The notes below the pieces were generated by a model. It ran no database searches. It was not told the origin of the DNA and worked only from the letters and a program-made list of their open reading frames with translations. The position numbers were made by a program, and so were the translations under genes. A DNA stretch of 64,000 nt. Origin: Klebsiella phage phiKp_32. The stretch lies in sequence record LC768500.1. One strand, given 5' to 3'. How positions within the stretch are numbered: position 1 is the stretch's first letter; each line of letters starts with the position of its first letter. This document shows, one piece after another, positions 4,171-60,853 of the stretch.

Positions 4171-4253
4171 GCAAAATCGAAGTCCGGGACACTATCCTTA
4201 TTTAAACCTATATTACGACCTAATGAAACTTAATGGTTTATCGGGAGCATTTA

Positions 4254-5264
4254 ATGGGATCAAGTTTAAGGCGAGATTTAAAAGAATTAGAGGAACATCC
4301 TCATTTTAAGGGGTTCTATAAGTGTCTTAGAGATGGGAGATTATGGCTCAATCCAGATAGCAACAATTACGTTATTTTGGAGAAGGATGGGAAAACTAAG
4401 AAGTTTTTTCTTTCTAAGAGAACGTCCAAAGGAGCCAGAGAGTATTTGAGGGTAACTATTTACGATAGCGGGAAAGAGCAGAACTCCTATCTTTATCACG
4501 TTATCAATGCCGAAACATTTTTAATAAAGCCCGACATACCCGATAGAAAACTGGAAGTTAATCACAAGAATTCTGACAGATGGGACGGGAGAGTTGACAA
4601 TCTTGAATATGTGACATCGCAAGAAAACATACGCCACGCTGTTGAGGCTGGTTCTTTTAATACGTTATCGGGATTTATTATAGATTTAACTACTGGAGAT
4701 AAATATTTCTTTTTCAGTTATTCGAGATTAATAACCGACTGGGGTTTTGACAGGTCCTCGGCAGAAAGCTATTTAAAAACCGATATGTCAGTCCCGCTTC
4801 TGTTTAAATGGGGGATAGAATTTGTCGGAGGTAAAAAATGCACTCTGACCAATGAGGATGTCGGTAAGTTCAGGAGAACACCAAAGTCCCCGATAAAGAT
4901 TTTAAATAAATCAACTGGTGAGGTGTCATGGGCCGTTAGCATGAAGGATTGTGCAAAAAAGATAGACTGTTCTCCTAGATTAATACATAAATTATTCTTT
5001 GGAAAAAATTCCTTCAGGTTAAAACAATGGGAAATTTCTTTTATAAATAATTACGAGGATTTTTTAAAATATCATGAGTATAAATCCACCATCGGCAAGG
5101 TCGGGGGTGTGCCAAAACCTATTTTCTTTATTCATGATAAAACCGGGGAGAAACTATCTTTTAAAACCATTACTGAAGCCTCAAAATACTTTAAGATTAC
5201 AAGAGGGAATCTTTCATTCTTAAGAAAACGCGGAAGTAAATTTTTAGGTTATAGTATAATCTGA
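4254..5264 (+). CDS. HNH homing endonuclease (HNH_3-type, free-standing)
   Basis: Motif VNHKNSDRWDGRVDNLEYVTSQENIRHA equals the HNH_3 catalytic core. Codons are extremely AT-rich. Start placed at ATG 4254 after a GGGAG RBS, although the ORF opens at 4233. Flanked by terminators. Confidence 0.7.
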   Translation: MGSSLRRDLKELEEHPHFKGFYKCLRDGRLWLNPDSNNYVILEKDGKTKKFFLSKRTSKGAREYLRVTIYDSGKEQNSYLYHVINAETFLIKPDIPDRKLEVNHKNSDRWDGRVDNLEYVTSQENIRHAVEAGSFNTLSGFIIDLTTGDKYFFFSYSRLITDWGFDRSSAESYLKTDMSVPLLFKWGIEFVGGKKCTLTNEDVGKFRRTPKSPIKILNKSTGEVSWAVSMKDCAKKIDCSPRLIHKLFFGKNSFRLKQWEISFINNYEDFLKYHEYKSTIGKVGGVPKPIFFIHDKTGEKLSFKTITEASKYFKITRGNLSFLRKRGSKFLGYSII

Positions 5265-5266
5265 TT

Positions 5267-5318
5267 CTATCCTTCCTCGCAAAAGCGAGGAAGGATAGAG
5301 GTATTTGTTTTTTTTTTT
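5267..5318 (+). terminator. rho-independent terminator after the HNH gene
   Basis: CTATCCTTCCTCGC / GCGAGGAAGGATAG stem with an AAAA loop, then a T11 run. It abuts the stop of the convergent helicase gene. Confidence 0.85.
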
Positions 5319-10918: not shown

Positions 10919-12589
10919 ATGGATCCTAAGTTACTGAAAGCGGTATCGGCTACGATGCCTAAGTTTAATGAAACGATAGCTTCAGGTTTCCATCAACGAG
11001 AATTTGAGCAAATACATAAACGTTATGAATATCTTTTAAGAATGACGTTTGAACCCATTGAAAAGAAAGGAGTATGGTTTGTTGGCGTCAGGTCGGTACG
11101 ACCTCATGAAATGTATAACGTCATCGCGAAGAACACACAGCAGAAAACCTTTGAAACAAACAAAGAAAGTCTTTATCCGGTTAAGCTCGTCTTTAAATAC
11201 GGGATGGATAAAAACACTGCCAGGGAGATGGATCCTGTTTACGTACTGCTCCCGTTCTGTGATCGGTATGGGGACGTTTGGATCAGGGGAAGCCAATACA
11301 GCCTACAGATAGTCCTGGCTGACCGAGGATTGAGCGTCACTAAAGACGATCAGATCTTCGTAAGACTCCTGGGATATAAATTCAAAGTAGGAACTGAGCA
11401 ATATGAATACACTCAGATCCACAATGAAATAAATCCTGTCAGGGAAACCAACCTTCCTATCAACCTTCCGGCTAACCGCTTCTACGTGGCCAGTGAAGCA
11501 CGTCGTCCAAACCCAACTAAAACACCCACACCTTTATTGGCGTGGTATGTGTTTGCGGAGTATGGTTTTAGCGAAACCATGCGTAAGTTCGGGGAATGCG
11601 ATTATGCGATAGGTGATCGTGATGCGATCATTCAGCAATATAGTGAAGATAAGGGTTGGAAGCTGTTTGGTAGTAAAGGATTGGCGATTGGTAAAAGTAT
11701 CACGCCATATGTGAATTGCGGGTTAGCTATAGCGGCTAAACCATTAAACGAAAAACGAAGAGGGGAAATACCTAACGTTGCACAACAGTATATTGCGGCA
11801 TTGCTTTATCTGTGTGATGTTGGCGGAGAATTTATTGATTTGGATAAACTCGACGATAAATATTTTTGGCGTATGATGGTCGGACACGCCAGTATTAAAG
11901 CCGGAGGAAATCTCACCCATTTGGAAAAACAGATGGCGGATCACTTCGATTCCATGAACGAAGGTTTAGACCAAACAAGTATCCAACGATTCGCTGAGCA
12001 ACGAATTGTGGTTAAAGATCGTTATGAATTGTTTAATTACATCATAGCGAATCGGGCTGAAATCGTTAAGACTTCCGATAAAGCCAATATGTTACATAAA
12101 GAAATTAGTTCTAGTGAGTTCACATTAGACAAACTGATTACTGCGGCTAACCGCTTTAAACACGATGTCAAAAACACAACAGAACTCAACTATGAACGTG
12201 TTAAGTCATTCATGTCATCTCATTTCAAATTACGCGATATCGAATCGGCTGCTTGGGAATCTAACATGATCCAAGAAGCTACGCCGACAGATTGCCCTAT
12301 CGCCGATTATGGCTTTGGGGTGATGTCTCAGGCGAAAGTGTTCGGTCCTCGTAATAACGGGAGAAACAGTGACTTTAACCCTAACGATCCCGCTAACTGC
12401 ATACATGGCTCTGTACCTTTTGTGATGAGTTTCCAACGGGTAACTAAACCCGACCCAAACGCTTGCGGATTCTTAGCCCCCTGCGTGTATTTGATCAACG
12501 ACAAATACTTGGGACTCAGACCAGAAGATGTGGAACTGTACGAAGCCACTGTGAGCAGACTTACTAAGTCTGAGGTTAAAATTAAATGA
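10919..12589 (+). CDS. hypothetical protein
   Basis: 556-aa ORF 11 nt after the previous stop. Small internal ORFs on both strands are taken as artefacts. Confidence 0.6.
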   Translation: MDPKLLKAVSATMPKFNETIASGFHQREFEQIHKRYEYLLRMTFEPIEKKGVWFVGVRSVRPHEMYNVIAKNTQQKTFETNKESLYPVKLVFKYGMDKNTAREMDPVYVLLPFCDRYGDVWIRGSQYSLQIVLADRGLSVTKDDQIFVRLLGYKFKVGTEQYEYTQIHNEINPVRETNLPINLPANRFYVASEARRPNPTKTPTPLLAWYVFAEYGFSETMRKFGECDYAIGDRDAIIQQYSEDKGWKLFGSKGLAIGKSITPYVNCGLAIAAKPLNEKRRGEIPNVAQQYIAALLYLCDVGGEFIDLDKLDDKYFWRMMVGHASIKAGGNLTHLEKQMADHFDSMNEGLDQTSIQRFAEQRIVVKDRYELFNYIIANRAEIVKTSDKANMLHKEISSSEFTLDKLITAANRFKHDVKNTTELNYERVKSFMSSHFKLRDIESAAWESNMIQEATPTDCPIADYGFGVMSQAKVFGPRNNGRNSDFNPNDPANCIHGSVPFVMSFQRVTKPDPNACGFLAPCVYLINDKYLGLRPEDVELYEATVSRLTKSEVKIK

Positions 12590-14979
12590 GCAGCATTCGC
12601 CCTACCAATCGCGGTAATGGAGTGAGTATTCCTAACGAAGATCCGAGCATGGGTAATGGTTTCGGTTCACTGGCTACAGGAATGCAACAAAATAGCATGT
12701 ACGGTCAACCGCAACAAATGTTTGATCCGTCTGCGATGATGAAAATGATTTCAACAGGAGGCATGAGCAATAACCCAGCCTCCGGCGGTTGGGATTGGTC
12801 GAACGTAGATAGGCCGAAGAACCCTAATGCTGCATTCTTGGATGAGTTTTTAGGGCATCAGGAAGATGAACTCGAGCACGCGTTGAAAATGGAAGCGCAA
12901 GCTTACGCAACTAAATTCGCAGCGCGTATTATCAACGACATTAAAACGAGAAACACAAGCGGGTATTATAAGTTCTTCCTTAACGCGTATAATATCTTTG
13001 CACTGGTCCCTGACGCCCCTCCTATGATGTGTCCTATCAGGGGGCGGTTCATAGAGGTTATCAAGAATACTCAGGCGGCGCAGTTGCGTATTGCGGGTCG
13101 TGGTGTGACATTCGGTGGTCGTGATTTCGCTTTACAGATCATGGCGCAGAATCCACTTGATCAACGTCTGGTAGAAAACCTCTTCAGTACTGGTATTGCG
13201 AACGCCATGTTTTTAGAAATGGTGGATTGGTTTGCTAAAACGGCTGATGGCAGAGACGCATATAGCAAGCTAACTAATGAACTTAAGTTGACATTGACTA
13301 AATTACCTAAGTTCATTACTTACGCAGCGGAATGCTTCCAGTTCTTCAATATGGATAGCCCGTATAATGACCTGAGTCCAGTCCCTAAAACTTCCCCAAA
13401 CCCAGATCAGAACATGAGTCAGTATGTGGTCAGATCGACGTCAGGGAGCGGAGCGGAGTGGTTAGGGTTCCAGCATTCTACAGAATCTCAACAGCAGAAG
13501 GAGATCCGAGAGATCAATGAATGGGTAGCGAATAATCTTCGTCATCGCCAAGAGTTCCAATATCAACAGGCTCAACAACAAACTCCCGACGCAGCGTATT
13601 GGTCTGGACAGCAGCCACAACAACAGTATAGCTTTGGTGAGCTTCATACTAAACGTGTTGATTTCGAAAACGTCAATCCCGATAACGTGGCGGATTTCTC
13701 TTTAGAGAACTTCAAACGCATCCCAGGGACCGATAAATACGTTGTTGATGAAACCACTTGGAGTTATTTCTCCAAGGCATTCAAACGGGCTTATCGTCCT
13801 TATGGTGAACTTTTTGCCGGAACATACGGAATACGAGTCGTCAAGATCAATTTCGAGCTCAACGACGGTTGGGTGGACAATGTTCTGTTTATAGAAGGAG
13901 TGACTCCAGCCATGGCTTTAGCCAACCCAGCGATGCTACTTCCACATCTCGAGACTGACCAGCAAGGCAACGTGGTCATTGTCGATGAAGTGGTCCTACC
14001 AAAAGAGAAGGACGAAGAAACTGGCATTGAAATGGTTCCGTTACAGAAAGTTAAAGTGATGGAACACGCCCCGACAGCGGTTGTTGTTCCCGAGGTTGTC
14101 ACAGGTGATAGCTTTGGAAATATCGAGACCGTAGTCGATACCATGTTTGAAACCGTTAAACCGTCAACATCAGGATTATTCGGTGTCGCGATCCCGGTAG
14201 AGAACTGGAAACGTTTCTTCGTAGAAGACAGTACGATTGTAGAAGAAATCTACCTTCGTTTGCCTTGGCTGATTAAAGGTAACGGCGGCGGTACTCCACC
14301 TACGTTCTTTGATTTCGTTTCCGAGATACAAAAGACGATGGATCATTACATCGGCTGTGATGAACTTCGTGGATTTGTTGAAACTCATATCACTGACACG
14401 GTTAACCGTTGGTTGGTGGATACGAGAGGTTACGGCGGCAATCGTGATGATCAATATCGCTTCAGAATTAATGGGATCTTCAGCAATCTCAGGAATCTGA
14501 TTAATCACTTAGAGAACAACGACCCTGATACGTTCAGCGTTTTGGTTGATCCTAAACGGTTTAAGCGACTCTTCACTAAGTGTAAATTGTTTGCACCGCG
14601 TGAGACGCGTTCAGCGCTCTTGAATGGCGCTCTGCCGAGTTCTCCAACTCAGGCTGCGATAGCTAAAGAAAACGATAAGAAAGCTATGGTTGTCCTTACA
14701 GACGTCGTAGTGACCCGTATCGGCAATATCCTCGCACCTAATACACAAAAGACCGTTATCAACGTAAAACGTTCAGCGTTCCCAGAGATGTTCTCTTTAA
14801 TCGAACGTTCGTTTGGGAAAACCTCCGATCTGTTACCAGAAGGTGTTGAACAGGTACTGTCTTTTGTCAGTGACGATAGTCTTTGGACTTTCAACACATC
14901 AGGATTTGATTCTAATGTCGCTGTTATGCGTAAGGTGGTCAGAACCCAAGGCATGCTTAATTTTAAATTAATTGAATAA
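12586..14979 (+). CDS. hypothetical protein with Gln-rich low-complexity segment
   Basis: 797-aa ORF whose ATGA overlaps the upstream stop. It carries QQAQQQT...QQPQQQ and an N-terminal Gly/Met/Gln-rich region. Confidence 0.6.
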   Translation: MSSIRPTNRGNGVSIPNEDPSMGNGFGSLATGMQQNSMYGQPQQMFDPSAMMKMISTGGMSNNPASGGWDWSNVDRPKNPNAAFLDEFLGHQEDELEHALKMEAQAYATKFAARIINDIKTRNTSGYYKFFLNAYNIFALVPDAPPMMCPIRGRFIEVIKNTQAAQLRIAGRGVTFGGRDFALQIMAQNPLDQRLVENLFSTGIANAMFLEMVDWFAKTADGRDAYSKLTNELKLTLTKLPKFITYAAECFQFFNMDSPYNDLSPVPKTSPNPDQNMSQYVVRSTSGSGAEWLGFQHSTESQQQKEIREINEWVANNLRHRQEFQYQQAQQQTPDAAYWSGQQPQQQYSFGELHTKRVDFENVNPDNVADFSLENFKRIPGTDKYVVDETTWSYFSKAFKRAYRPYGELFAGTYGIRVVKINFELNDGWVDNVLFIEGVTPAMALANPAMLLPHLETDQQGNVVIVDEVVLPKEKDEETGIEMVPLQKVKVMEHAPTAVVVPEVVTGDSFGNIETVVDTMFETVKPSTSGLFGVAIPVENWKRFFVEDSTIVEEIYLRLPWLIKGNGGGTPPTFFDFVSEIQKTMDHYIGCDELRGFVETHITDTVNRWLVDTRGYGGNRDDQYRFRINGIFSNLRNLINHLENNDPDTFSVLVDPKRFKRLFTKCKLFAPRETRSALLNGALPSSPTQAAIAKENDKKAMVVLTDVVVTRIGNILAPNTQKTVINVKRSAFPEMFSLIERSFGKTSDLLPEGVEQVLSFVSDDSLWTFNTSGFDSNVAVMRKVVRTQGMLNFKLIE

Positions 14980-15087
14980 CCCCACCATCCTAGAACCATT
15001 TAATCGATTAAGTTGTTAACATCGGATATCCTTCCTTAGCGGGAGGGTATCCTTTAATAACCATTTCCCACAAAAAAGGAATACGAA

Positions 15088-27639: not shown

Positions 27640-30411
27640 ATGTCAGAATATTTATATCCTTGGAATCCCTTCCAAGATGATGATGACGCCCGTATCACTG
27701 GAGAGCTCGCGAGTGTACCCGGGGGAACCCGTGTGCTGGTCGTTCCTAGAGCCGCTCCTTTCTTTTCCGAAAACTTAACTATTGTCAATTCGGATACTAA
27801 TGCCCCGTTGGTATTAGGTGAAGACTACGTCTTCAGTTATCCGTTTATGGATTTTATCAAGAATTATTCCAAAAACGTTTATGGTGGGATAATTCTTCTC
27901 AAAGCAACCACCGCTTTGAACATTTCAATAAGTTATGACACCATCGGCGGGCCGTTCGTTTTAGATGACGTTGCGTACGCTGAAGCTGTGGCCAACATCA
28001 TCTCATCCGGGAGATTGGCAGATTGGAGTCAGGTCGTTAATCTCCCTTCTGGTTTCCCAGCCGATCCCCACGACCATCCAGAAAGCCAAACTTATAACTA
28101 CAACGAGTTCATGGCTAACCTCACTCTGATGATTGAGGCGATGAACAATGAAACGAATAACCCGACTGTCCAGACGCAGCTGACACAGCACAGTGCCGAT
28201 AACTTAAGAATCGCGCATCCCAACGGCGAGCCAGAGGATGTGGGATTAAGCAATCTTCACGATTACCCGGTGGCTCAAGAAAGTGATTTCGACGGTAATT
28301 CCAACCAGTTATATATGGTTCTTGGTATTACGAAGAAACTCATCGATAAAATGTTAGCCGAGTTCTTGAACGGATCGTTACCCGCTGACTTCGAAGAAAC
28401 GGTTCAAGAAATCTACGATCAAATGAACTCTTACTTGCAGCAAACGGCTACGCTCGCTGGGCAAGTTGATAACAAGCTGTCGAACACCATCAACGGTTTG
28501 GAAACCTTCGATAATGGCGCGACACTGACGTCAACCAAGGATATGTTATTCCATACCCCAACTAACAGTTGGTACTATTGGGGTGGGACTTATCCTACTG
28601 GCGGTTACGTTGTCAGCGGCGGGGCTTCCCCTTACGATGCTTCAGGTAATCTGATAGCCGGTTGGAAAGTGGCTGGTGCAGTTGAGCTTGAAACCAGACT
28701 CTCTTCGAAAACCATCGGCCTGGGTGGGGACATCGTAGGTTACACGGCAGTAGCTGGAGCAATAGCCCGTACTGTGAATGACCGACTCCGGGATACGATT
28801 AGTGTAAGGGACTATTATCAAAGTAGTGATAATGGTAACTGGGCCTTGGCTTATAACCGGGCTAAAGCAGTCAACCCTAAAGTTTGGTTCCCGAGATCCG
28901 ATTCTGCGTACATCGTTACTTCAACGTTGGCTCTGTCCGCTGGAGGTGGGATATACTCAAACGGCGCAACTATAAGCTCTCCTCCTGCGGCTGACGCCAC
29001 GGGTACAGCACTGATAAAGGTCATTTCGGCGACAAGTGTTTCCGACATCGAGCTAAGCGGGATAACTATCGATGGTGGGGTTAACGAAACACTGACGTCT
29101 AAAAACTACACTCGACCTGTTCAGATGACCGGATGCACTAATATTCGGTTTAGGAACGTTAGGATCGTAAACAATCCTGATTGGAGTTTTTCACTAGAAT
29201 CGTGTAAACAGATCATTATTGACAATTACTATCAACGTTCTTTCGTCTATGCCAACAGTGCGACGACTACATCGTTAGCGGGCGGTCGAGACGGCGGTCA
29301 CTTGATGGACTGTGTCGACGCAACATTAACGAATCTGGATATCGAGTCTGGTGACGATTGTATCGGGATCACGTCTAAACTGTCAGGCTGTGCTAACATC
29401 ACAGTGAGAGGGCTTAAAGGAAGCTCGGTTATCGCCAGTCTTCTGATTTATAACGAAGAACAGGACGGGTCGTCGAATTATTATTCGCAACCTTGTTCTC
29501 GTTTAAAATTCTCCGAGATCCATGTAAAAGATGGAGCTAACTGTCGCAACATCGTTCGAGTTAAGAAATACGGCTCTACTTCTGTCATTAACGATGTCTC
29601 GATAACGGGAGTAAGCGGGAAAGCCAATAACAGTTACGGTGTATGGGTGGGTGGTGTTAATAACGTTTACCTCAACGATATTAACGTCGAATCAACTCAG
29701 GTTCATGGTGCGTATATTGAGAACTGCTCGAGGGTAAGAGGTAACGTAAAAGGTAAAGCCAACGTTTCCACTTATCACGGCGTTATTGTGTACAACTCCA
29801 ATAACTGTGATCTGACATTGGATTCTGACCAATCTGCGGGTTACGGGATTTATCTGGATACGGTGAGTAATTCAGTAATACGTCCGTATTCATATAACTG
29901 TGGTGCTGGGTTATTCTCCTCTTCGGCAGGCGGTGGTTGCAGGATGGTGAACTGCTCCTACGTCAATATGCCTCAGGGCAATCTCTATGGTACTACAACG
30001 GTTTCCTATTACGGATTGAATTATTCGACTGGAAATACGAACTGTACCTTTGGGTTGGATCTGATGTTCTTCGGCCTGGTTCCTTCCACCAGACTGCCAA
30101 CCGCATATTACTTGAAGGCCCCTGCAGTCAGCCTTAAATTCAAAGAGGACTCCGCGGGAACTTTATCGACCTACTCCGCTATAGGGTGTACGTTGACCCG
30201 TAACGCCGCAGGGAACTATACCGTTGCGTTCTCAAGCAATATGAACTCGACCGGTTTCCAGTGGGTGTTGGAAGCTTACCATAACGGGGCCAGAAGAACG
30301 GTTCAGTTATCTTCAGCGGTGACGGTAGGTGGGTTTAGTTTCTTGACCCAAGACTCGGCCGGAACAACAACATATGCCGATCATGTTAGTTTGATGGCTT
30401 GGAATACTTAA
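27640..30411 (+). CDS. tail fiber/tailspike with pectate-lyase-type right-handed beta-helix (depolymerase candidate)
   Basis: The N-terminal anchor motif VVPRAAPFFSENLTIVNSDT is shared with the next two fibers. Beta-helix signatures are present (IVNNPDWSFSLESC, GDDCIGITSK, repeated xVxNVxL rungs). Start set at ATG 27640 after an AGGA RBS, although the ORF opens at GTG 27604. Confidence 0.7.
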   Translation: MSEYLYPWNPFQDDDDARITGELASVPGGTRVLVVPRAAPFFSENLTIVNSDTNAPLVLGEDYVFSYPFMDFIKNYSKNVYGGIILLKATTALNISISYDTIGGPFVLDDVAYAEAVANIISSGRLADWSQVVNLPSGFPADPHDHPESQTYNYNEFMANLTLMIEAMNNETNNPTVQTQLTQHSADNLRIAHPNGEPEDVGLSNLHDYPVAQESDFDGNSNQLYMVLGITKKLIDKMLAEFLNGSLPADFEETVQEIYDQMNSYLQQTATLAGQVDNKLSNTINGLETFDNGATLTSTKDMLFHTPTNSWYYWGGTYPTGGYVVSGGASPYDASGNLIAGWKVAGAVELETRLSSKTIGLGGDIVGYTAVAGAIARTVNDRLRDTISVRDYYQSSDNGNWALAYNRAKAVNPKVWFPRSDSAYIVTSTLALSAGGGIYSNGATISSPPAADATGTALIKVISATSVSDIELSGITIDGGVNETLTSKNYTRPVQMTGCTNIRFRNVRIVNNPDWSFSLESCKQIIIDNYYQRSFVYANSATTTSLAGGRDGGHLMDCVDATLTNLDIESGDDCIGITSKLSGCANITVRGLKGSSVIASLLIYNEEQDGSSNYYSQPCSRLKFSEIHVKDGANCRNIVRVKKYGSTSVINDVSITGVSGKANNSYGVWVGGVNNVYLNDINVESTQVHGAYIENCSRVRGNVKGKANVSTYHGVIVYNSNNCDLTLDSDQSAGYGIYLDTVSNSVIRPYSYNCGAGLFSSSAGGGCRMVNCSYVNMPQGNLYGTTTVSYYGLNYSTGNTNCTFGLDLMFFGLVPSTRLPTAYYLKAPAVSLKFKEDSAGTLSTYSAIGCTLTRNAAGNYTVAFSSNMNSTGFQWVLEAYHNGARRTVQLSSAVTVGGFSFLTQDSAGTTTYADHVSLMAWNT

Positions 30412-47850: not shown

Positions 47851-49755
47851 ATGAGAGAGCAACTAGCTGAACAAATCAAGTATCATAATAAACGTTATTT
47901 TTTAGATAACGATCCGGAAATATCCGACGATCAATACGACGAATTAAAACGGCAATACGACGCGTTGGGTGGTAATAAAAGTTCTTCCCCCGTCTTGTTA
48001 GACATGGAGGGGAGTGCTCTGCACAAGGTAGGGTTAGACATCCCCATGTTATCTTTATCTAAGAAATTGAACTTATCGGAATACGAAGCCTGGGAATCCG
48101 ATTACGAAGATAAGGATAAGTATCATTCTTACAAACTGGACGGTCTGGCGATTGAAGCCTGTTACGAGTTTGGTTTGTTAACTAAGCTCCGTACACGAGG
48201 AGATGGGCTAACTGGCGAAGATATCTTAGATAATGCCGGGGTTTTCTCACCAGATCAGCTCCCTTTAGAAAATCCGGCTTTAAAGGATTTTCACCGGGTT
48301 TGGTTACGAGGGGAAGGGTACGTCAGACTGGACGATCTGGTTGTTATCAATGAGATCAACGCCAAGACTTATCCCAATTGTCGTAGTGCGGCATCGGGCC
48401 TTATTCGTAGAAATCCAAAAGACAACGAAGATCTGGCAGGTAAGATTTCTTATAACGTTTATTGGTGCAGTGAACGTTTCGGTTTAGAGACTTACTCCGC
48501 CGTTATGGATAAACTCCGTGACTTCGGTTTCAGTACTGCCCCGGAATGTCAGTATGAAGACATTGTCAATAATAACCGTCCCCCACTTCTTCCTACTGAC
48601 GGAATCGTTTCCGTTATCGATAGTTTTTCTGATCAAGATGAATTGGGTTCGACTAACGAATATCCTCGCTGGGGAGTGGCATATAAGTTCCCTCCGGAGC
48701 AAGCGGAAACCATCGCTGAAAACGTTTCATGGGAAACGGGTAGAACGGGACGAGTCACCCCAGTTCTCACTTATAAGGCGGTTACGTTAGGCGGTAATAC
48801 AAACACGGAATGTTCTTTGTTCAACTATCGTCATTTTATCAAAACCGGGGTACGTAAAGGGAGTCGGATCATCATCGCCCGTAACGGTGACGTCATTCCT
48901 TATTTCGTTAGGGTTGTAGAAGCCGGATTAGGCGATGAGTTTAAAACCCCTAAAGTCTGTCCGTCGTGTTCGTCCATTCTGATGTATGAAGGGAAAGACG
49001 AGAAGAACATCTTCTTAACCTGTAAAAATACCGCGGATTGTCCAGCGCAGCATATCCAGCGATTCATTAATTTTGTCAGTCGTAAGGGATTGGATATCAA
49101 AGGTTACGGCGATAAGATGATGGAGAAGCACGTCGGGGAAGGGAAAGTCAGTACGCTTTCTGACATTCTTAACTTAGGAGAAATCCTTTCAGGGGAGGGT
49201 TTGGATAGGAATACTGAGAAGGTTATTGAGAAACTCAATAACTTAGGAAGTTACCCGGCATATAAGGTACTGGGTGCTTTGGGTATTCCTGGTGTCGCCG
49301 AAGGAACAGCTAAACTCATTACCGCTCAAGTCGGCAGTGTGGAAGATCTAATCGCTCTGCTTAAAGACGTTAAACGTTTGCTGGAGATTGAAGGTGTTGG
49401 AGTGAGTACCGTAAATGAGATCCAATCGTTTTTAAGTAACCCGGCTCTTTTTACGGATGTCGAAAACGTACTGAATAAACTCACATTAACATTTGAAAAA
49501 GGACAAGAACACGATATCAAAGTTTGTGTTACCGGGGGGTTATCCATTCCGAGAAAAGCAGCAGAAGAGAAGTTCAATCTTTCTGGGATTGAGTTACTGG
49601 ACGGTGTAACTAAAAAGATGGATGTTCTCGTCTTCGCACCTGGAGGGAGTCAGGGTAAGAAGGATAAAGCTATCGCCATGAATAAAGTGGTTATAGAAGC
49701 AACCGACGTTCACACTGTAGAACAAATTATCGATCAAATATTAACAGCCATTTAG
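47851..49755 (+). CDS. ligA: NAD+-dependent DNA ligase (LigA family)
   Basis: N-terminal Ia-like region YHNKRYFLDNDPEISDDQYDEL. Adenylation motif is KLDGLA, then TRGDGLTGEDI. The C4 zinc finger is CPSCSS...CKNTADCPAQ. HhH and C-terminal BRCT-like regions follow (VCVTGGLS). Confidence 0.85.
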   Translation: MREQLAEQIKYHNKRYFLDNDPEISDDQYDELKRQYDALGGNKSSSPVLLDMEGSALHKVGLDIPMLSLSKKLNLSEYEAWESDYEDKDKYHSYKLDGLAIEACYEFGLLTKLRTRGDGLTGEDILDNAGVFSPDQLPLENPALKDFHRVWLRGEGYVRLDDLVVINEINAKTYPNCRSAASGLIRRNPKDNEDLAGKISYNVYWCSERFGLETYSAVMDKLRDFGFSTAPECQYEDIVNNNRPPLLPTDGIVSVIDSFSDQDELGSTNEYPRWGVAYKFPPEQAETIAENVSWETGRTGRVTPVLTYKAVTLGGNTNTECSLFNYRHFIKTGVRKGSRIIIARNGDVIPYFVRVVEAGLGDEFKTPKVCPSCSSILMYEGKDEKNIFLTCKNTADCPAQHIQRFINFVSRKGLDIKGYGDKMMEKHVGEGKVSTLSDILNLGEILSGEGLDRNTEKVIEKLNNLGSYPAYKVLGALGIPGVAEGTAKLITAQVGSVEDLIALLKDVKRLLEIEGVGVSTVNEIQSFLSNPALFTDVENVLNKLTLTFEKGQEHDIKVCVTGGLSIPRKAAEEKFNLSGIELLDGVTKKMDVLVFAPGGSQGKKDKAIAMNKVVIEATDVHTVEQIIDQILTAI

Positions 49756-52016: not shown

Positions 52017-52538
52017 TTGGATCAAATTACTATTTACACCGATGGTAGCTGTCTTGAGAATAGCGCGGCCGGAGGACCGGGAGGATGGGCGTACATTATC
52101 GTAGGCAAGGATGAAAAATATTCGATAGAGCAAAACAAAGGTTATTTTAAAACCACAAATAACCGAATGGAAATGATGGCGTGTTTAGAAGCGTTATTGG
52201 AGTTCGATTACCCGAAAAGAATTATCATTCATACCGATAGCCAATATCTCATCGACGGGATGACTAAATGGATTTACGGTTGGAGAAAAAGGAATTGGGT
52301 GACGGGTTACGGAGAAGCAGTTAAAAACAAAGACCTTTGGCAGGCGTTGATTGACGCCAGTAAGTTTCACAAAGTCACCTACGTGAAAGTTAGAGCGCAT
52401 AATGGTGATAAGTACAATGAGCGATGCGATGTTCTCGCTAAAGAAGCGGCGAGAAACCCAGAGCTTGATGACGTAGGATTTGTTCCCGTACACAACCCAC
52501 CCAAAATTAAATATCCTTATTACTTTAGGAAAAGATAA
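52017..52538 (+). CDS. rnhA: ribonuclease HI
   Basis: Collinear with E. coli RNase HI: ITIYTDGSC, TTNNRMEMMA, IHTDSQY, WIYGWRKRNW, RAHNGDKYNERCDVLAK. The start appears to be TTG, with a GAGGA RBS 8 nt upstream. Confidence 0.8.
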   Translation: MDQITIYTDGSCLENSAAGGPGGWAYIIVGKDEKYSIEQNKGYFKTTNNRMEMMACLEALLEFDYPKRIIIHTDSQYLIDGMTKWIYGWRKRNWVTGYGEAVKNKDLWQALIDASKFHKVTYVKVRAHNGDKYNERCDVLAKEAARNPELDDVGFVPVHNPPKIKYPYYFRKR

Positions 52539-52540
52539 TC

Positions 52541-53881
52541 ATGGTTTCAATTGATGATGTGCAGAAAAAACTCACTACTTATTTTGATGACCGTTTAATC
52601 GGGCAACCGGAATTAGTAGAAGGTATCATTACCAATATTAAGTTGCGAGAGATCTACCACAATAATTTAGCGTTTGCTAAAGAAGCCGGTATTTATATCC
52701 CCCCTTTAAATATGCTGGTTAGGGGGAAATCTGGCAACGGTAAAAGTCATTCGATTAACTTTATTTGTCGATCTTTGGGATTACCTTTCGTCAGCGTCAA
52801 CGCCACGGATTTTACTTCTTCCGGTTACGTTGGCGCTTCGTTGTCAGATATTCCTAAAATGCTGATCGATGAAGCGGAAAGGATTCTTAAAGAGAAAGAT
52901 CAAATTAAGGGTGGGTTCGACGTTCCCCCTCCCACACAGGACGATAAAGATGTTGAGGAAGCCGACAATCGTTTTAAAGCAATAGAAAAAGAATTAATCG
53001 ACTTGGGTGTTCGTATGGATAAAATGGGTCCTAAGCGACCTGCCTTCGCCCACTCTATACGTTTGTATGAAAAGGGGATACCGTACAGAATCAAACTTTG
53101 TTTCAGTAACAAAACACCTAAGAAACTTTATGCCGAATTAACCGAAGGGAAGGAATTTACCGATAAAGAGAGGACTAAGATTAATAGTCTGTTAAACAAG
53201 CTGTCCACCCCATATAAACCCTACTCGTTTAAATTCGATACAAGTTTCATTGACAAGTTCAGGTTAGGTGGAATAAAAGATTCTAATCCTGGAGTCAAAG
53301 AGTATGCCCAAAATAAGGGTATCGTCATGATCGATGAGATTGATAAAATCCTCATGGGTAAGAACGGACAATACAACGTTGGGACTCACGGAATCATCAG
53401 GGAGATTCTAGCCTATCTGTCCGGATCAAACATCATGAGCGGAGGTGATATGTTTGATACGTCAAACATCATCTTTATCTGTGCTGGCGCTTTTGACATG
53501 GTCGACTTTAAAGATATCCCCACCGAACTCTTAGGTCGCCTCCCTACACGTTTAACTGTTAAGGACCCTACTGAAGATAGTCTTTACCGGATGCTGACTT
53601 CCCAGGTAGTGGACCCGTGGGGTATGGTCAAACTCATTCTTCGTAACAAAGGATGTGAAAATTTCATCATTAGTGATGAAATTTCTAGACATATCGCCAA
53701 ACGTGTTATCGAGGACGAAAAGATCAAACCCATTGGGGTCAGACGTTTAATGGCTGTGATTAGCGAAATAGCTAAAATCTATTATCTCATGGACGAGATA
53801 GATAAAGAGATAACTTTATCAGAGTTCGTAGCGGATAAAGCACTTAAAACGATTAGAGACGGTTTATTAGAATCGGTTTAA
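52541..53881 (+). CDS. hslU: HslU-like AAA+ unfoldase ATPase
   Basis: Collinear with HslU: LIGQPELVEG, Walker A GKSGNGKSH, substrate/sensor loop ATDFTSSGYVG, an inserted I-domain-like region, Walker B GIVMIDEIDKI, IFICAGAF, LLGRLPTRLTV and a GVRRL C-terminal motif. Confidence 0.75.
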   Translation: MVSIDDVQKKLTTYFDDRLIGQPELVEGIITNIKLREIYHNNLAFAKEAGIYIPPLNMLVRGKSGNGKSHSINFICRSLGLPFVSVNATDFTSSGYVGASLSDIPKMLIDEAERILKEKDQIKGGFDVPPPTQDDKDVEEADNRFKAIEKELIDLGVRMDKMGPKRPAFAHSIRLYEKGIPYRIKLCFSNKTPKKLYAELTEGKEFTDKERTKINSLLNKLSTPYKPYSFKFDTSFIDKFRLGGIKDSNPGVKEYAQNKGIVMIDEIDKILMGKNGQYNVGTHGIIREILAYLSGSNIMSGGDMFDTSNIIFICAGAFDMVDFKDIPTELLGRLPTRLTVKDPTEDSLYRMLTSQVVDPWGMVKLILRNKGCENFIISDEISRHIAKRVIEDEKIKPIGVRRLMAVISEIAKIYYLMDEIDKEITLSEFVADKALKTIRDGLLESV

Positions 53882-53883
53882 AC

Positions 53884-53935
53884 TTATATCCTGGGCGGAT
53901 CCGCCCAGGATATAATCTGTTAATTTAACTTTTGG
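53884..53935 (+). terminator. terminator after hslU-like gene (32-bp palindrome)
   Basis: TTATATCCTGGGCGGATCCGCCCAGGATATAA, then a T-rich tail. Confidence 0.7.
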
Positions 53936-55598: not shown

Positions 55599-55896
55599 TA
55601 ATTAATTAATGTTAAACCTAGGATAGTATAGTATAAATAGCTCTAGCGCAATATATTAGGCCTTCGGCCTAAAGGGCTAGGGTAAGTCTATTCGTTCGTT
55701 TCAGCATCAATCAAGGTATTCGCTACGCTCATACTTTCTTATGCTGATCGATGGGTAGAAAATCTTTCTATTTTAGTTAAATACCAGTTAAAACGGGTTT
55801 GGGCGACGTCTTTTTGAAAATTTAACTAGTGGCTATCATCTTGGTACTTAACTTATTTAATTTAAACTCTATATCATAAAGTCGGAGGAACTTATT

Positions 55897-57033
55897 ATGT
55901 TTATTTCTAAACGAGGTAAACTCCGGCTCTATAAAGAGGACGTGGAGTTAGTTAATCGCACCTTTGGTTGTCGGAGATTTGTATGGAATCAATTATTGGG
56001 TTTACACAAAGAGCGATATGAAAAATGGAAGGAAAATAATAACTTAGAAAAACCCACAGTTTCTATTTCTGCATTGAGAGAAGATTTTAAACGTATTAGA
56101 TCGGAGCATTCTTGGTTAAATGAAGTAAGTTCTGTTGCTTTATATGAGACCATTACTGATCTTTATAATGCCTTTCAACGCTTCTTCAATAATCAATCCG
56201 GTTACCCTAAGTTTAAATCTAAGAGAGGCGCGCAGACTTTTCGTATCACCTCTAGGGTCAACCTGCGGGTCGAGGGTAATATGGTTAGGTTACCCAAATC
56301 CAATTGTTATTCGATATTCTCTAAAAATACTGTCTTAAATGATCCTTCTTCTTATACCGTTACTAGGGATAGCGTAGGCGATTATTTCATCTCTTTCGTA
56401 GACCAAATTGATGAGATAGAGCCAGAACCCGAAAGTAAGGGCAAACATGTAGGGATCGATTTAGGAATTAAATCCTTAGCGATTGTTAAACCTAGTAAGG
56501 GAGAACCTTGGGAATTAATCAACCCTAGAACGTATACGAAATATCAAAAACGCAGAACGACGCTACAACGCCGTTTAATGAAAAAGAAGAAAGGGAGTAA
56601 AAACAGAAACAAAGCTAGAATTAAATTAGCGAAGTTAGAACGTAAAGTTGCTAATATTCGTAAAGATCTTTTACACAAATTTACGACTACACTGATTAAA
56701 GAAAACCAAATGATCAGTATCGAAGATTTAAATGTAAAAGGGATGTTAAAAAACCATAGCTTGGCTAAACATATTCAGGATTGTTCTTTTGGTACAATTA
56801 GAACGATGCTGGAATATAAAGCTAAACGTTATACTCGAAATAAAACGATCACCATCGTTAATCGGTTCTTTGCAAGCACTCAACTTTGTTCTCAGTGCGG
56901 TGTTCTCCCTAAAGAGCGTATCGGACTTAAAATCAGGAACTGGGTATGTTGGAACTGCGGCACTAAACACGATAGAGATATTAACGCTGCTACGAATATC
57001 CTTAACCAAGGATTACGTTTAACAACCTCCTAG
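55897..57033 (+). CDS. tnpB: TnpB (IS605 OrfB), RuvC-like RNA-guided nuclease family
   Basis: N-terminus is LRLYKEDVELVNRTFGCRRFVWNQ. RuvC-I is HVGIDLGIKSLA and RuvC-II is ISIEDLNVKGM. The zinc ribbon is CSQCG...CWNCG and RuvC-III is HDRDINAATNIL. Confidence 0.85.
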   Translation: MFISKRGKLRLYKEDVELVNRTFGCRRFVWNQLLGLHKERYEKWKENNNLEKPTVSISALREDFKRIRSEHSWLNEVSSVALYETITDLYNAFQRFFNNQSGYPKFKSKRGAQTFRITSRVNLRVEGNMVRLPKSNCYSIFSKNTVLNDPSSYTVTRDSVGDYFISFVDQIDEIEPEPESKGKHVGIDLGIKSLAIVKPSKGEPWELINPRTYTKYQKRRTTLQRRLMKKKKGSKNRNKARIKLAKLERKVANIRKDLLHKFTTTLIKENQMISIEDLNVKGMLKNHSLAKHIQDCSFGTIRTMLEYKAKRYTRNKTITIVNRFFASTQLCSQCGVLPKERIGLKIRNWVCWNCGTKHDRDINAATNILNQGLRLTTS

Positions 57034-57250
57034 GTTAAGGGTATTTATTACCCTTGGTCTGAGGGGAAGTTAAGCCTGTGGAGACAAGTTGCAGTAAGGA
57101 CTTTCTATGAAGCAGGAAGTTGAAATATACAAGACATCTTACACTCACCCATGCAACCTGGAGAGAAACCCCGACTGAACAAAGTTGTTTATTCCTTCTC
57201 AGGGGAATAAACAGTTCGTCGGCTAAAGACATAGGATGTTTTATGATCAG
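56900..57250 (+). ncRNA. putative TnpB guide RNA (omega/right-end RNA) overlapping the tnpB 3' end and right-end hairpins
   Basis: Inferred from the known IS605 TnpB architecture. Hairpin AAGGGTATTTATTACCCTT lies immediately after the stop codon, and the 11-bp stem TTGTTTATTCC/GGAATAAACA lies at 57193-57221. Boundaries are not determinable by eye. Confidence 0.3.
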
Positions 57251-59917: not shown

Positions 59918-59962
59918 ATCATAATCCCGTCAATTTATTTTATACTTTTAGGAAACGCCATC

Positions 59963-60853
59963 ATGAACATCAATCAACTGCCAGAGAATCATCACGTCAT
60001 TTCTTCTATGGTCAATCCGTTTGACCCTAACGAAGAATTGTTCTTCGTTACCCATCCTCGTGTAAATACTTACTTGGATCTCGACGTCTGGTTCTGTGAT
60101 ATGGGTACCGGGGATATGAGAGTTGTCGAACCCTACGGCAAAGTGTCCGACGTTCGGTTATTTCCCCATATGGAAAAACACGTGTCCGACAATTCGGTTG
60201 AGTTTCTTTACCCCACAGTGATCACCCCTCTTAGTCTCCGAGAAACAGTTCTAAAAGTAGAGGATATCCTCGCTGGTGATAAACTTAATCCATTTCCATT
60301 ATCTGGAAGCGGGGCTGATCCGATGAGTGGATGGCGCTCAGACCCCCACGGAGTGAAAAGGAATATTCAAAAATTACCAGACGCTCTTGATTTATTAACC
60401 GATGAACAGCAAGAAAATTCTTTCCCTCTCGAAAGTCTTAACACCAGTAAAGCTCTTCATCACCCTTCCCCAGAAGAAATATCTGATGGGGCTAATAAGG
60501 AGTACGAGGCGAGGAAAGCAGCTTTGAAAGAACTGCTGGAAAGCGGAGGTGAGATTAAACCAATTCCGAAAACGGTTTACTACACTAAAGAGTTTTCTGA
60601 TGCTTTAGAGGACGTCCGCGCTGAACAGAGAGAGGCGACCGACCAACAAAGTTCCAAAATCCCCACTGAGTCTAGCGTAACCGTGACTGACCTTGGTGAC
60701 GGATTTTCAAGGATAGAAAAAACAATCGGGGGAAGAACCTTGGTAAGTTACGATGAAAAGGCTCACATTCCTTTTCCAAGAAAGCGCAAGCCCAAGAAAC
60801 CCAACCATAATCTTAACGCGATCATGGGTTTGTTAGCGAGGGCCAAGAAGTGA
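59963..60853 (+). CDS. hypothetical protein with disordered acidic/basic C-terminal half
   Basis: 296-aa ORF whose ATGA couples it to the next gene. Confidence 0.55.
   Translation: MNINQLPENHHVISSMVNPFDPNEELFFVTHPRVNTYLDLDVWFCDMGTGDMRVVEPYGKVSDVRLFPHMEKHVSDNSVEFLYPTVITPLSLRETVLKVEDILAGDKLNPFPLSGSGADPMSGWRSDPHGVKRNIQKLPDALDLLTDEQQENSFPLESLNTSKALHHPSPEEISDGANKEYEARKAALKELLESGGEIKPIPKTVYYTKEFSDALEDVRAEQREATDQQSSKIPTESSVTVTDLGDGFSRIEKTIGGRTLVSYDEKAHIPFPRKRKPKKPNHNLNAIMGLLARAKK

Follow-up and report, generated by a model that had tools for sequence, protein, structure and literature searches.

An HslU-lineage ATPase of a Miami-like jumbo phage that lacks the parts for protease docking: a candidate stand-alone unfoldase

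Nearly all knowledge of HslU concerns its role as the ATPase component of the two-component HslUV protease, and an HslU-like gene in a phage raises the question of what its product does when no peptidase partner is in sight. Such a gene lies in a stretch of 64,000 nucleotides from Klebsiella phage phiKp_32 (LC768500.1), which was analyzed as a whole and is referred to here as the window. The coding sequence occupies positions 52541..53881 on the + strand, begins with ATG and is an open reading frame (ORF) of 446 aa, at exactly the position given in a preliminary description that had proposed a phage HslU-like unfoldase. Our analysis points to a stand-alone unfoldase or remodeler, and not a protease subunit, as the probable function of this protein.

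The affiliation with the AAA+ ATPases is consistent across databases. The protein passes the Pfam gathering cut-offs of AAA (1.8e-12; 48.3 bits, cut-off 21.2) and AAA_2 (6.9e-09; 36.4 bits, cut-off 27), and HslU is the top NCBIfam model (6.6e-33), followed by ClpX. Because it scores 114.3 bits against the equivalog cut-off of 362.45 for HslU (TIGR00390), the phage protein is, by this measure, not an HslU ortholog; the cut-offs of the ClpX models TIGR00382 and NF003745 (370.75 and 359) are not reached either, with 39.8 and 54.3 bits, respectively. The top sequence match in the PDB is HslU (1g3i, 7.9e-26) and falls into two collinear blocks (aa 10-123 and 256-421), in agreement with the earlier statement that the protein is collinear with bacterial HslU. 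Among phage families, it matches phrog_4339, a profile of the RAY gp116-like family, at 1.4e-40, and it is 98.4% identical to CPT_Miami_072 of Klebsiella phage Miami, annotated as 'ATP-dependent protease'. An AlphaFold2 model (mean predicted local distance difference test score 79; predicted template modeling score 0.67) was compared with the PDB by Foldseek: all 50 of the 50 top matches are HslU, with E-values down to 7e-17 and TM-scores of ~0.6.

Conservation of the catalytic motifs was judged in two alignments, of 40 and of 11 sequences, comprising bacterial HslU, ClpX and phage relatives. The Walker A motif GKSGNGKS (aa 62-69, 52724..52747, + strand) contains G62, G65, G67 and K68, which are invariant across the 40 sequences. 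The pore-1 loop GYVG (aa 95-98, 52823..52834, + strand), part of the SSGYVG segment at aa 93-98 (nt 52817-52834), has invariant G95 and G98 and a nearly invariant Y96. The Walker B motif IVMIDEIDK (aa 261-269, 53321..53347, + strand) includes D265 and E266. Further downstream, GRLP (aa 332-335, 53534..53545, + strand) carries the Arg finger R333, equivalent to R325 of E. coli HslU, and GVRRL (aa 399-403, 53735..53749, + strand) carries the sensor-2 residue R401, equivalent to R393; G332 and R333 as well as G399 and R401 are invariant. The pore loop and the sensor motifs named in the preliminary description are thus found at aa 93-98 and R401, and the closer alignment reveals no loss of either Walker motif. 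Judged by these conserved positions, the protein belongs to the AAA+ ATPases of the HslU lineage, and its Walker A and B motifs, GYVG loop, Arg finger and sensor-2 are intact.

What is missing are the parts by which such ATPases engage a peptidase. In HslU, the C-terminal tail, its Phe441 and Pro315 are required for the docking and activation of HslV: the active complex arises when the tail slots in between HslV protomers, Phe441 is invariant among prokaryotic HslU, and contacts to HslV are also made by Pro315 and the loop preceding it (PMC4106860). All bacterial HslU in our alignment share a C-terminal (D/E)L(S/T)R(F/Y)IL. The phage protein ends in ...DGLLESV (53858..53878, + strand), exactly where bacterial HslU runs on into (E)DLSRFIL, and the tail is absent. 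In the alignment, DLSRFIL is lacking in 11 out of 11 members of the Miami-type clade to which the phage protein belongs, and RAY gp116 and three SPN3US-like proteins likewise possess no HslV-activating tail. The Pro315 column is occupied by Phe in the phage protein, by His in the clade members P0007-P0011 and by Val in RAY gp116. Alignment with ClpX finds neither the IGF loop nor the N-terminal zinc-binding domain of that family in the phage protein. The tripeptide GGF (aa 124-126) was considered as a mimic of the IGF loop and rejected: it resides inside an inserted domain on the substrate-entry face, and nothing is inserted at the position of the ClpX IGF loop. With the tail, Pro315 and the IGF loop absent, both known peptidase-coupling routes of this AAA+ clade are therefore missing, and the loss of the docking tail would make canonical peptidase coupling impossible.

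These losses bear directly on the hypothesis that the phage ATPase caps host HslV (or ClpP) and steers host proteolysis to targets chosen by the phage. Klebsiella hosts carry hslVU, and the protein does belong to the HslU lineage, both of which count for such a hybrid protease. In phage RAY there is, moreover, a gene for an SspB-like ClpXP adaptor (PMC10299810), which shows that this phage family interacts with host proteolysis. The Phe441 tail and Pro315, however, are missing in the phage clades examined, there is no IGF loop, and core identity to HslU amounts to only ~27%. In addition, RAY gp116, an accessory gene product assigned to the 'HslUV protease family', co-localizes with the DNA of the phage within the phage nucleus when fused to green fluorescent protein (PMC10299810), i.e. 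in a compartment that imports proteins selectively. Hence, we regard the capping of a host peptidase as distinctly improbable, and the delivery of proteins to host HslV or ClpP, as suggested in the preliminary description, is not upheld by the missing docking parts or by the nuclear position of RAY gp116.

A different situation was noticed in six other HslU-family proteins (P0141, P0167, P0187, P0201, P0222 and P0242), which share 33-46% identity with E. coli HslU, lack DLSRFIL and end in ...IGF(xx). This terminus looks like the ClpX-type ClpP-docking tripeptide relocated on an HslU scaffold, and these six ATPases might be re-wired to ClpP.

The stand-alone reading of the phage protein presupposes that the phage does not supply a peptidase of its own. 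We translated the window and the complete 252-kb genome of its closest relative, phage BUCTxx100, in six frames from stop to stop (1,848 segments, each 50 aa or longer) and queried these segments by phmmer and hidden Markov models (HMMs), with all HMMER filters off, using E. coli HslV, two divergent phage HslV-like proteins, an HMM of five HslV sequences and E. coli ClpP. Neither the window nor the BUCTxx100 genome yielded an HslV or ClpP; the best E-values, 0.24-2, correspond to noise, while E. coli HslU as a positive control recovers the HslU-like protein at 8e-26 in the same set. The earlier statement that no HslV gene is adjacent thus stands, for the whole window and for all of BUCTxx100. 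A Pfam scan of 145 BUCTxx100 ORFs of 130-340 aa yielded the S80 prohead protease as the sole peptidase among the families listed, i.e. the best 25 of 63 matched families (25 of 142 in the corresponding NCBIfam scan), and, out to a distance of 10 kb, the surroundings of three distant clade members on metagenomic contigs contain no Pfam match to Proteasome or ClpP. On a broader scale, a tblastn search of 50,697 phage records with E. coli HslV (E<=1) gave no match in a jumbo phage of the Miami-like, Erwinia or SPN3US-like groups; the 22 records retrieved are bacterial contigs filed as phage and unrelated ~145-kb Klebsiella phages.

It could be argued that a phage two-component protease exists whose peptidase is too divergent for sequence searches. 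Justusliebigvirus FKP3 and Aeromonas phage PAc indeed carry HslV-like genes of 27-29% identity that tblastn recovers only at E-values of ~0.3-0.7, and most products of the genome are of unknown function. Yet a profile including divergent phage HslVs yields nothing in the window or in BUCTxx100 (best E 1.2, an ORF of capsid size), and no small neighboring gene is conserved across the clade members, which leaves this explanation very improbable indeed.

The same search touches on an annotation elsewhere. The Salmonella jumbo phage pSal-SNUABM-04 has been reported to contain two 'HslV' genes and no HslU (PMC7823757). In our data, tblastn with E. coli HslV finds HslV in no Salmonella jumbo phage, and HslU-like genes are common in these phages according to homology searches; the two genes are probably mislabeled HslU-like genes.

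Bacterial HslU and the phage protein also differ in the stretch that separates the helix of the pore loop from Walker B. At this point E. coli HslU contains its I-domain of 134 aa, and the phage protein an inserted domain of 138 aa (aa 117-254, 52889..53302, + strand) with an isoelectric point (pI) of 9.3. The I-domain insertion claimed in the preliminary description is accordingly right in position and size; in sequence it is not, since comparison with a bacterial I-domain profile by hhalign gives a probability of 0.2% and no detectable sequence similarity, and HMMER alignments of the phage protein to HslU omit aa 124-255. The insert is predicted by AlphaFold2 to be mostly helical (helices 135-154 and 181-221), with linkers of low confidence. 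It is basic in all 11 of the 11 Miami-type sequences (pI 8.1-9.5) and in RAY gp116 (pI 9.2). The I-domains of bacterial HslU have a pI of 4.9-5.6 (15/15 sequences), and the inserts of the three SPN3US-like phage proteins one of 4.5-5.8. By profile comparison, the Miami-type insert has no relationship to those of RAY gp116 and the SPN3US-like proteins either, which span 221-388 aa.

The Miami-type clade is small. A protein homology search returns only 12 clusters at E<1e-73; next come bacterial HslU and ClpX, with values down at ~1e-25. Among 1.84 billion representatives, a clade profile detects only ~5-7 clusters (50% identity) at E<1e-60. The next-ranked profile matches (1e-54 to 1e-39) are tail-less proteins of 520-600 aa that are 40-61% identical to RAY gp116. 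The tail is missing in 20 of the 23 top profile matches, compared with about one third of the other 127. One further protein, P0123 (1,238 aa), is matched by the clade profile in nine separate stretches and may be a tandem multi-module HslU-like ATPase. In a neighbor-joining tree (298 core columns, 300 bootstraps), the phage proteins and HslU split from ClpX with 100% support; bacterial HslU forms its own clade with all phage proteins outside (99%). The Miami-type clade is supported at 100% and its grouping with RAY gp116 at 92%, while the SPN3US-like group stands apart without a firmly supported placement. The grouping of the Miami-type clade with RAY gp116 is in line with the profile ranking, which was obtained independently, and with residues that the two have in common.

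Where the protein might act depends on the nature of the phage. The window shares ~91-95% nucleotide identity with a small group of jumbo phages of ~252-257 kb, comprising the Klebsiella phages Miami, YC1 and KPN8, Raoultella phage VB_ZK_P1 and 'Stenotrophomonas' phage BUCTxx100. It is collinear with the latter (OR529409.1) apart from a few insertions, with 93-97% identity over nearly the whole window; the 'Stenotrophomonas' host label of BUCTxx100 looks doubtful, or else the host range is unusually wide. Prichard et al. (2023, PMC10299810) treated Miami as 'a distant relative of RAY', and BUCTxx100 contains homologs of the RAY DNA polymerase (2.4e-124) and of the beta' subunit of the non-virion RNA polymerase (nvRNAP; 1.4e-60), together with PhiKZ_VTX and a Peptidase_S80 prohead protease. 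The slot between DNA polymerase and nvRNAP beta', where chimallin is located, holds an ORF of 670 aa (BUCTxx100 202037-204049) with a weak PDB match to PhuN of phiPA3 (1.4e-4). No RAY chimallin homolog was detected in BUCTxx100 by phmmer (E<=1e-3), and BLASTP of the slot ORF against RAY ChmA is not significant; if it is a chimallin, it is a very divergent one. Because of the weak PhuN match, the synteny and the results of Prichard et al. (2023), we assign the lineage of the window to the Miamivirus-like chimallin, i.e. nucleus-forming, jumbo phages.

Other genes of BUCTxx100 may be recorded here. The genome encodes an Acb1-type protein directed against the CBASS defense system (Pfam 9.2e-14), three GNAT acetyltransferases, an SPFH/Band 7 protein, and PnuC with a ribosylnicotinamide kinase, a salvage pair for nicotinamide adenine dinucleotide (NAD) that fits the NAD-dependent ligase beside the HslU-like gene.

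From the conserved and the replaced parts we hypothesize the following mode of action. The ATPase residues and the substrate-gripping GYVG loop are kept, and ATP binding and the threading of polypeptides are predicted from sequence. The protein would form a hexameric ring of the HslU lineage that is uncoupled from proteolysis and unfolds or disassembles proteins without degrading them. There is a precedent for protease-independent remodeling: ClpX dismantles MuA transpososomes without ClpP. The basic, lineage-specific insert on the substrate-entry face would most likely select the substrates in place of the acidic I-domain. Given this basic replacement and the replication and repair genes nearby, candidate substrates are components of the machinery for replication, recombination or transcription that are either acidic or bound to nucleic acid. 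In accordance with the fusion experiment on RAY gp116, a gene to which the tblastn match in RAY corresponds in position, the action may take place inside the chimallin phage nucleus. Nuclear location and substrate class are less secure than the stand-alone unfoldase at the core of this proposal.

The nuclear position of the RAY homolog has consequences for two further hypotheses. One presumes a cytoplasmic unfoldase for anti-defense or host takeover, by which a specific host protein, for instance a defense effector or nucleoid protein, is unfolded or taken apart but not degraded. The gene is accessory and patchily distributed, occurring in Miami-like, Agricanvirus and SPN3US-like phages; its substrate-recognition insert is fast-evolving and lineage-specific; and overcoming host defense is one possibility named for gp116 by the authors of the RAY study (PMC10299810). 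But RAY gp116 co-localizes with phage DNA and not with the cytoplasm, and the protein has no similarity to PADLOC defense families or known anti-defense families (best E 0.002), so that a role in the cytoplasm seems unlikely to us. A defense-system ATPase as such was also considered and rejected, as the best PADLOC matches, IetA (0.0019) and PtuA (0.0032), involve the P-loop only.

The other hypothesis proposes a nuclear motor of chimallin phages, which either draws selected proteins in unfolded form through the chimallin shell or, within the nucleus, clears phage DNA or RNA of proteins. An 'unfoldase' has been raised as one unexplained option for protein import into the phage nucleus (bioRxiv 10.1101/2024.03.27.586873). 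A gp116-type gene is absent from some model nucleus-forming phages (PMC10299810); an accessory gene of this kind would therefore be a lineage-specific booster of import or remodeling and not the universal import engine. We give the motor hypothesis little credence and retain the stand-alone unfoldase as the favored function.

Several points weigh against this preference. The peptidase searches are sequence-based, and a very divergent N-terminal nucleophile hydrolase or another chambered peptidase would escape them; the Pfam batch scan rules out only Proteasome or ClpP matches stronger than ~1e-8. Nuclear localization is extrapolated from a homolog with only ~30% core identity, and the substrate class from charge and gene context alone. 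The grouping of the Miami-type clade with RAY may owe something to long-branch attraction. Finally, the gene neighborhood varies outside the Miami group, with PhoH in the loci L015 and L019 and a thymidine kinase in RAY.

In the window itself, the gene appears as part of an ordered transcription unit. Its ribosome-binding site, AGGA (52527..52530, + strand), was read directly from the sequence 11-14 nt 5' of the ATG and falls within the 3'-terminal part of the RNase H gene, the stop codon of which (52536-52538) precedes the ATG by 2 nt; the Miami annotation has a ribosome-binding site at the equivalent position. Three nucleotides past the stop codon of the HslU-like gene follows a hairpin (53884..53915, + strand), a perfect GC-rich palindrome of 14 bp with seven GC pairs and a loop of 4 nt, which is terminator-like, again with an annotated terminator at the equivalent site in Miami. 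Since the hairpin directly follows the stop codon, the HslU-like gene would close the + strand unit. The neighbors mentioned in the preliminary description, RNase H (52017-52538, + strand; Pfam 8.4e-40) and NAD-dependent DNA ligase (47851-49755, + strand; Pfam 8e-33), are both borne out, and the HslU-like gene forms with them an operon-like unit as its last cistron. This place fits a remodeler, but the adjacency of RNase H and ligase is confined to the Miami group, and the gene neighborhood was for this reason rejected as a functional clue. The ratio of nonsynonymous to synonymous substitution rates (dN/dS) against the Miami and BUCTxx100 orthologs is 0.04-0.07 at dS values of 0.14-0.21; the gene is therefore functional and under strong purifying selection.

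Other parts of the window are more variable. A TnpB/Cas12f-like ORF of 378 aa (55897-57033, + strand; element 55897-57121) matches Pfam OrfB_IS605 (7.6e-30), Cas12f1-like_TNB (8.6e-20) and PADLOC Cas12f (2e-56). Against both BUCTxx100 and Miami, the element constitutes an insertion: window positions 55745 to 57138 correspond to BUCTxx100 55248 to 55247. A second element, 74% identical, is present at BUCTxx100 12365-13589 and absent from the matching site of the window (~15009-15017). Two diverged TnpB elements at different sites in sister jumbo phages imply recent mobility. Three segments of ~0.9-1.1 kb each (window 4178-5309, 28880-29893 and 59920-60797) have no megablast counterpart in BUCTxx100 and may be other mobile or variable cassettes.

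A phage HslU-like protein as such is already known: the gene is annotated in Miami, and the RAY homolog has been localized. Beyond the study of Prichard et al. (2023), our literature search found no paper tying these phages to HslU. What appears to be new is that the tail is lost in all jumbo-phage HslU-lineage proteins examined, none of which has a peptidase partner, and that in the Miami/RAY branch Pro315 is lost and an unrelated basic domain replaces the acidic I-domain. The tail-less jumbo-phage proteins would be a naturally occurring case in which an HslU scaffold has become an unfoldase that works by itself. With one member, RAY gp116, in the nucleus, the family is a concrete candidate for ATP-driven protein remodeling in the phage nucleus. 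The labels 'ATP-dependent protease' and 'HslVU protease subunit' on such phage genes are probably wrong.

Compared with known systems, the phage protein resembles ClpX in its membership of the same AAA+ clade and in the GYVG pore loop, and differs from it in lacking both zinc-binding domain and IGF loop. With bacterial HslU (ClpY; TIGR00390; PDB 1g3i, 1do0, 5ji3) it shares the fold of the HslU/ClpX clade, Walker A and B, GYVG, Arg finger and sensor-2, an insertion of ~135 aa at the same point and nearly the same length (446 versus 443 aa); the differences are a core identity of ~27%, the absence of DLSRFIL with Phe441, a Phe in place of Pro315, and a basic insert unrelated in sequence to the acidic I-domain. 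The 'HslU domain-containing' proteins of the SPN3US-like and Erwinia phages (Phobos gp130, pEa_SNUABM_4 gp138, SPAsTU gp40) are also tail-less members of the HslU lineage from jumbo phages, but they are longer (580-682 aa), contain acidic inserts of 290-388 aa, share 22-26% core identity with the phage protein and form a separate clade. RAY gp116 is set apart by its 569 aa, an insert of 221 aa, a GYYG pore loop, an extra C-terminal extension, another gene neighborhood and 31-33% identity to the phage protein in the two AAA blocks. It nevertheless comes from a jumbo chimallin phage, lacks the tail, carries another residue in place of Pro315, contains an insert that is likewise basic, and has in common with the Miami-type proteins NVG in place of DVS as well as the motif P-x-E-[IL]-LGRLP.

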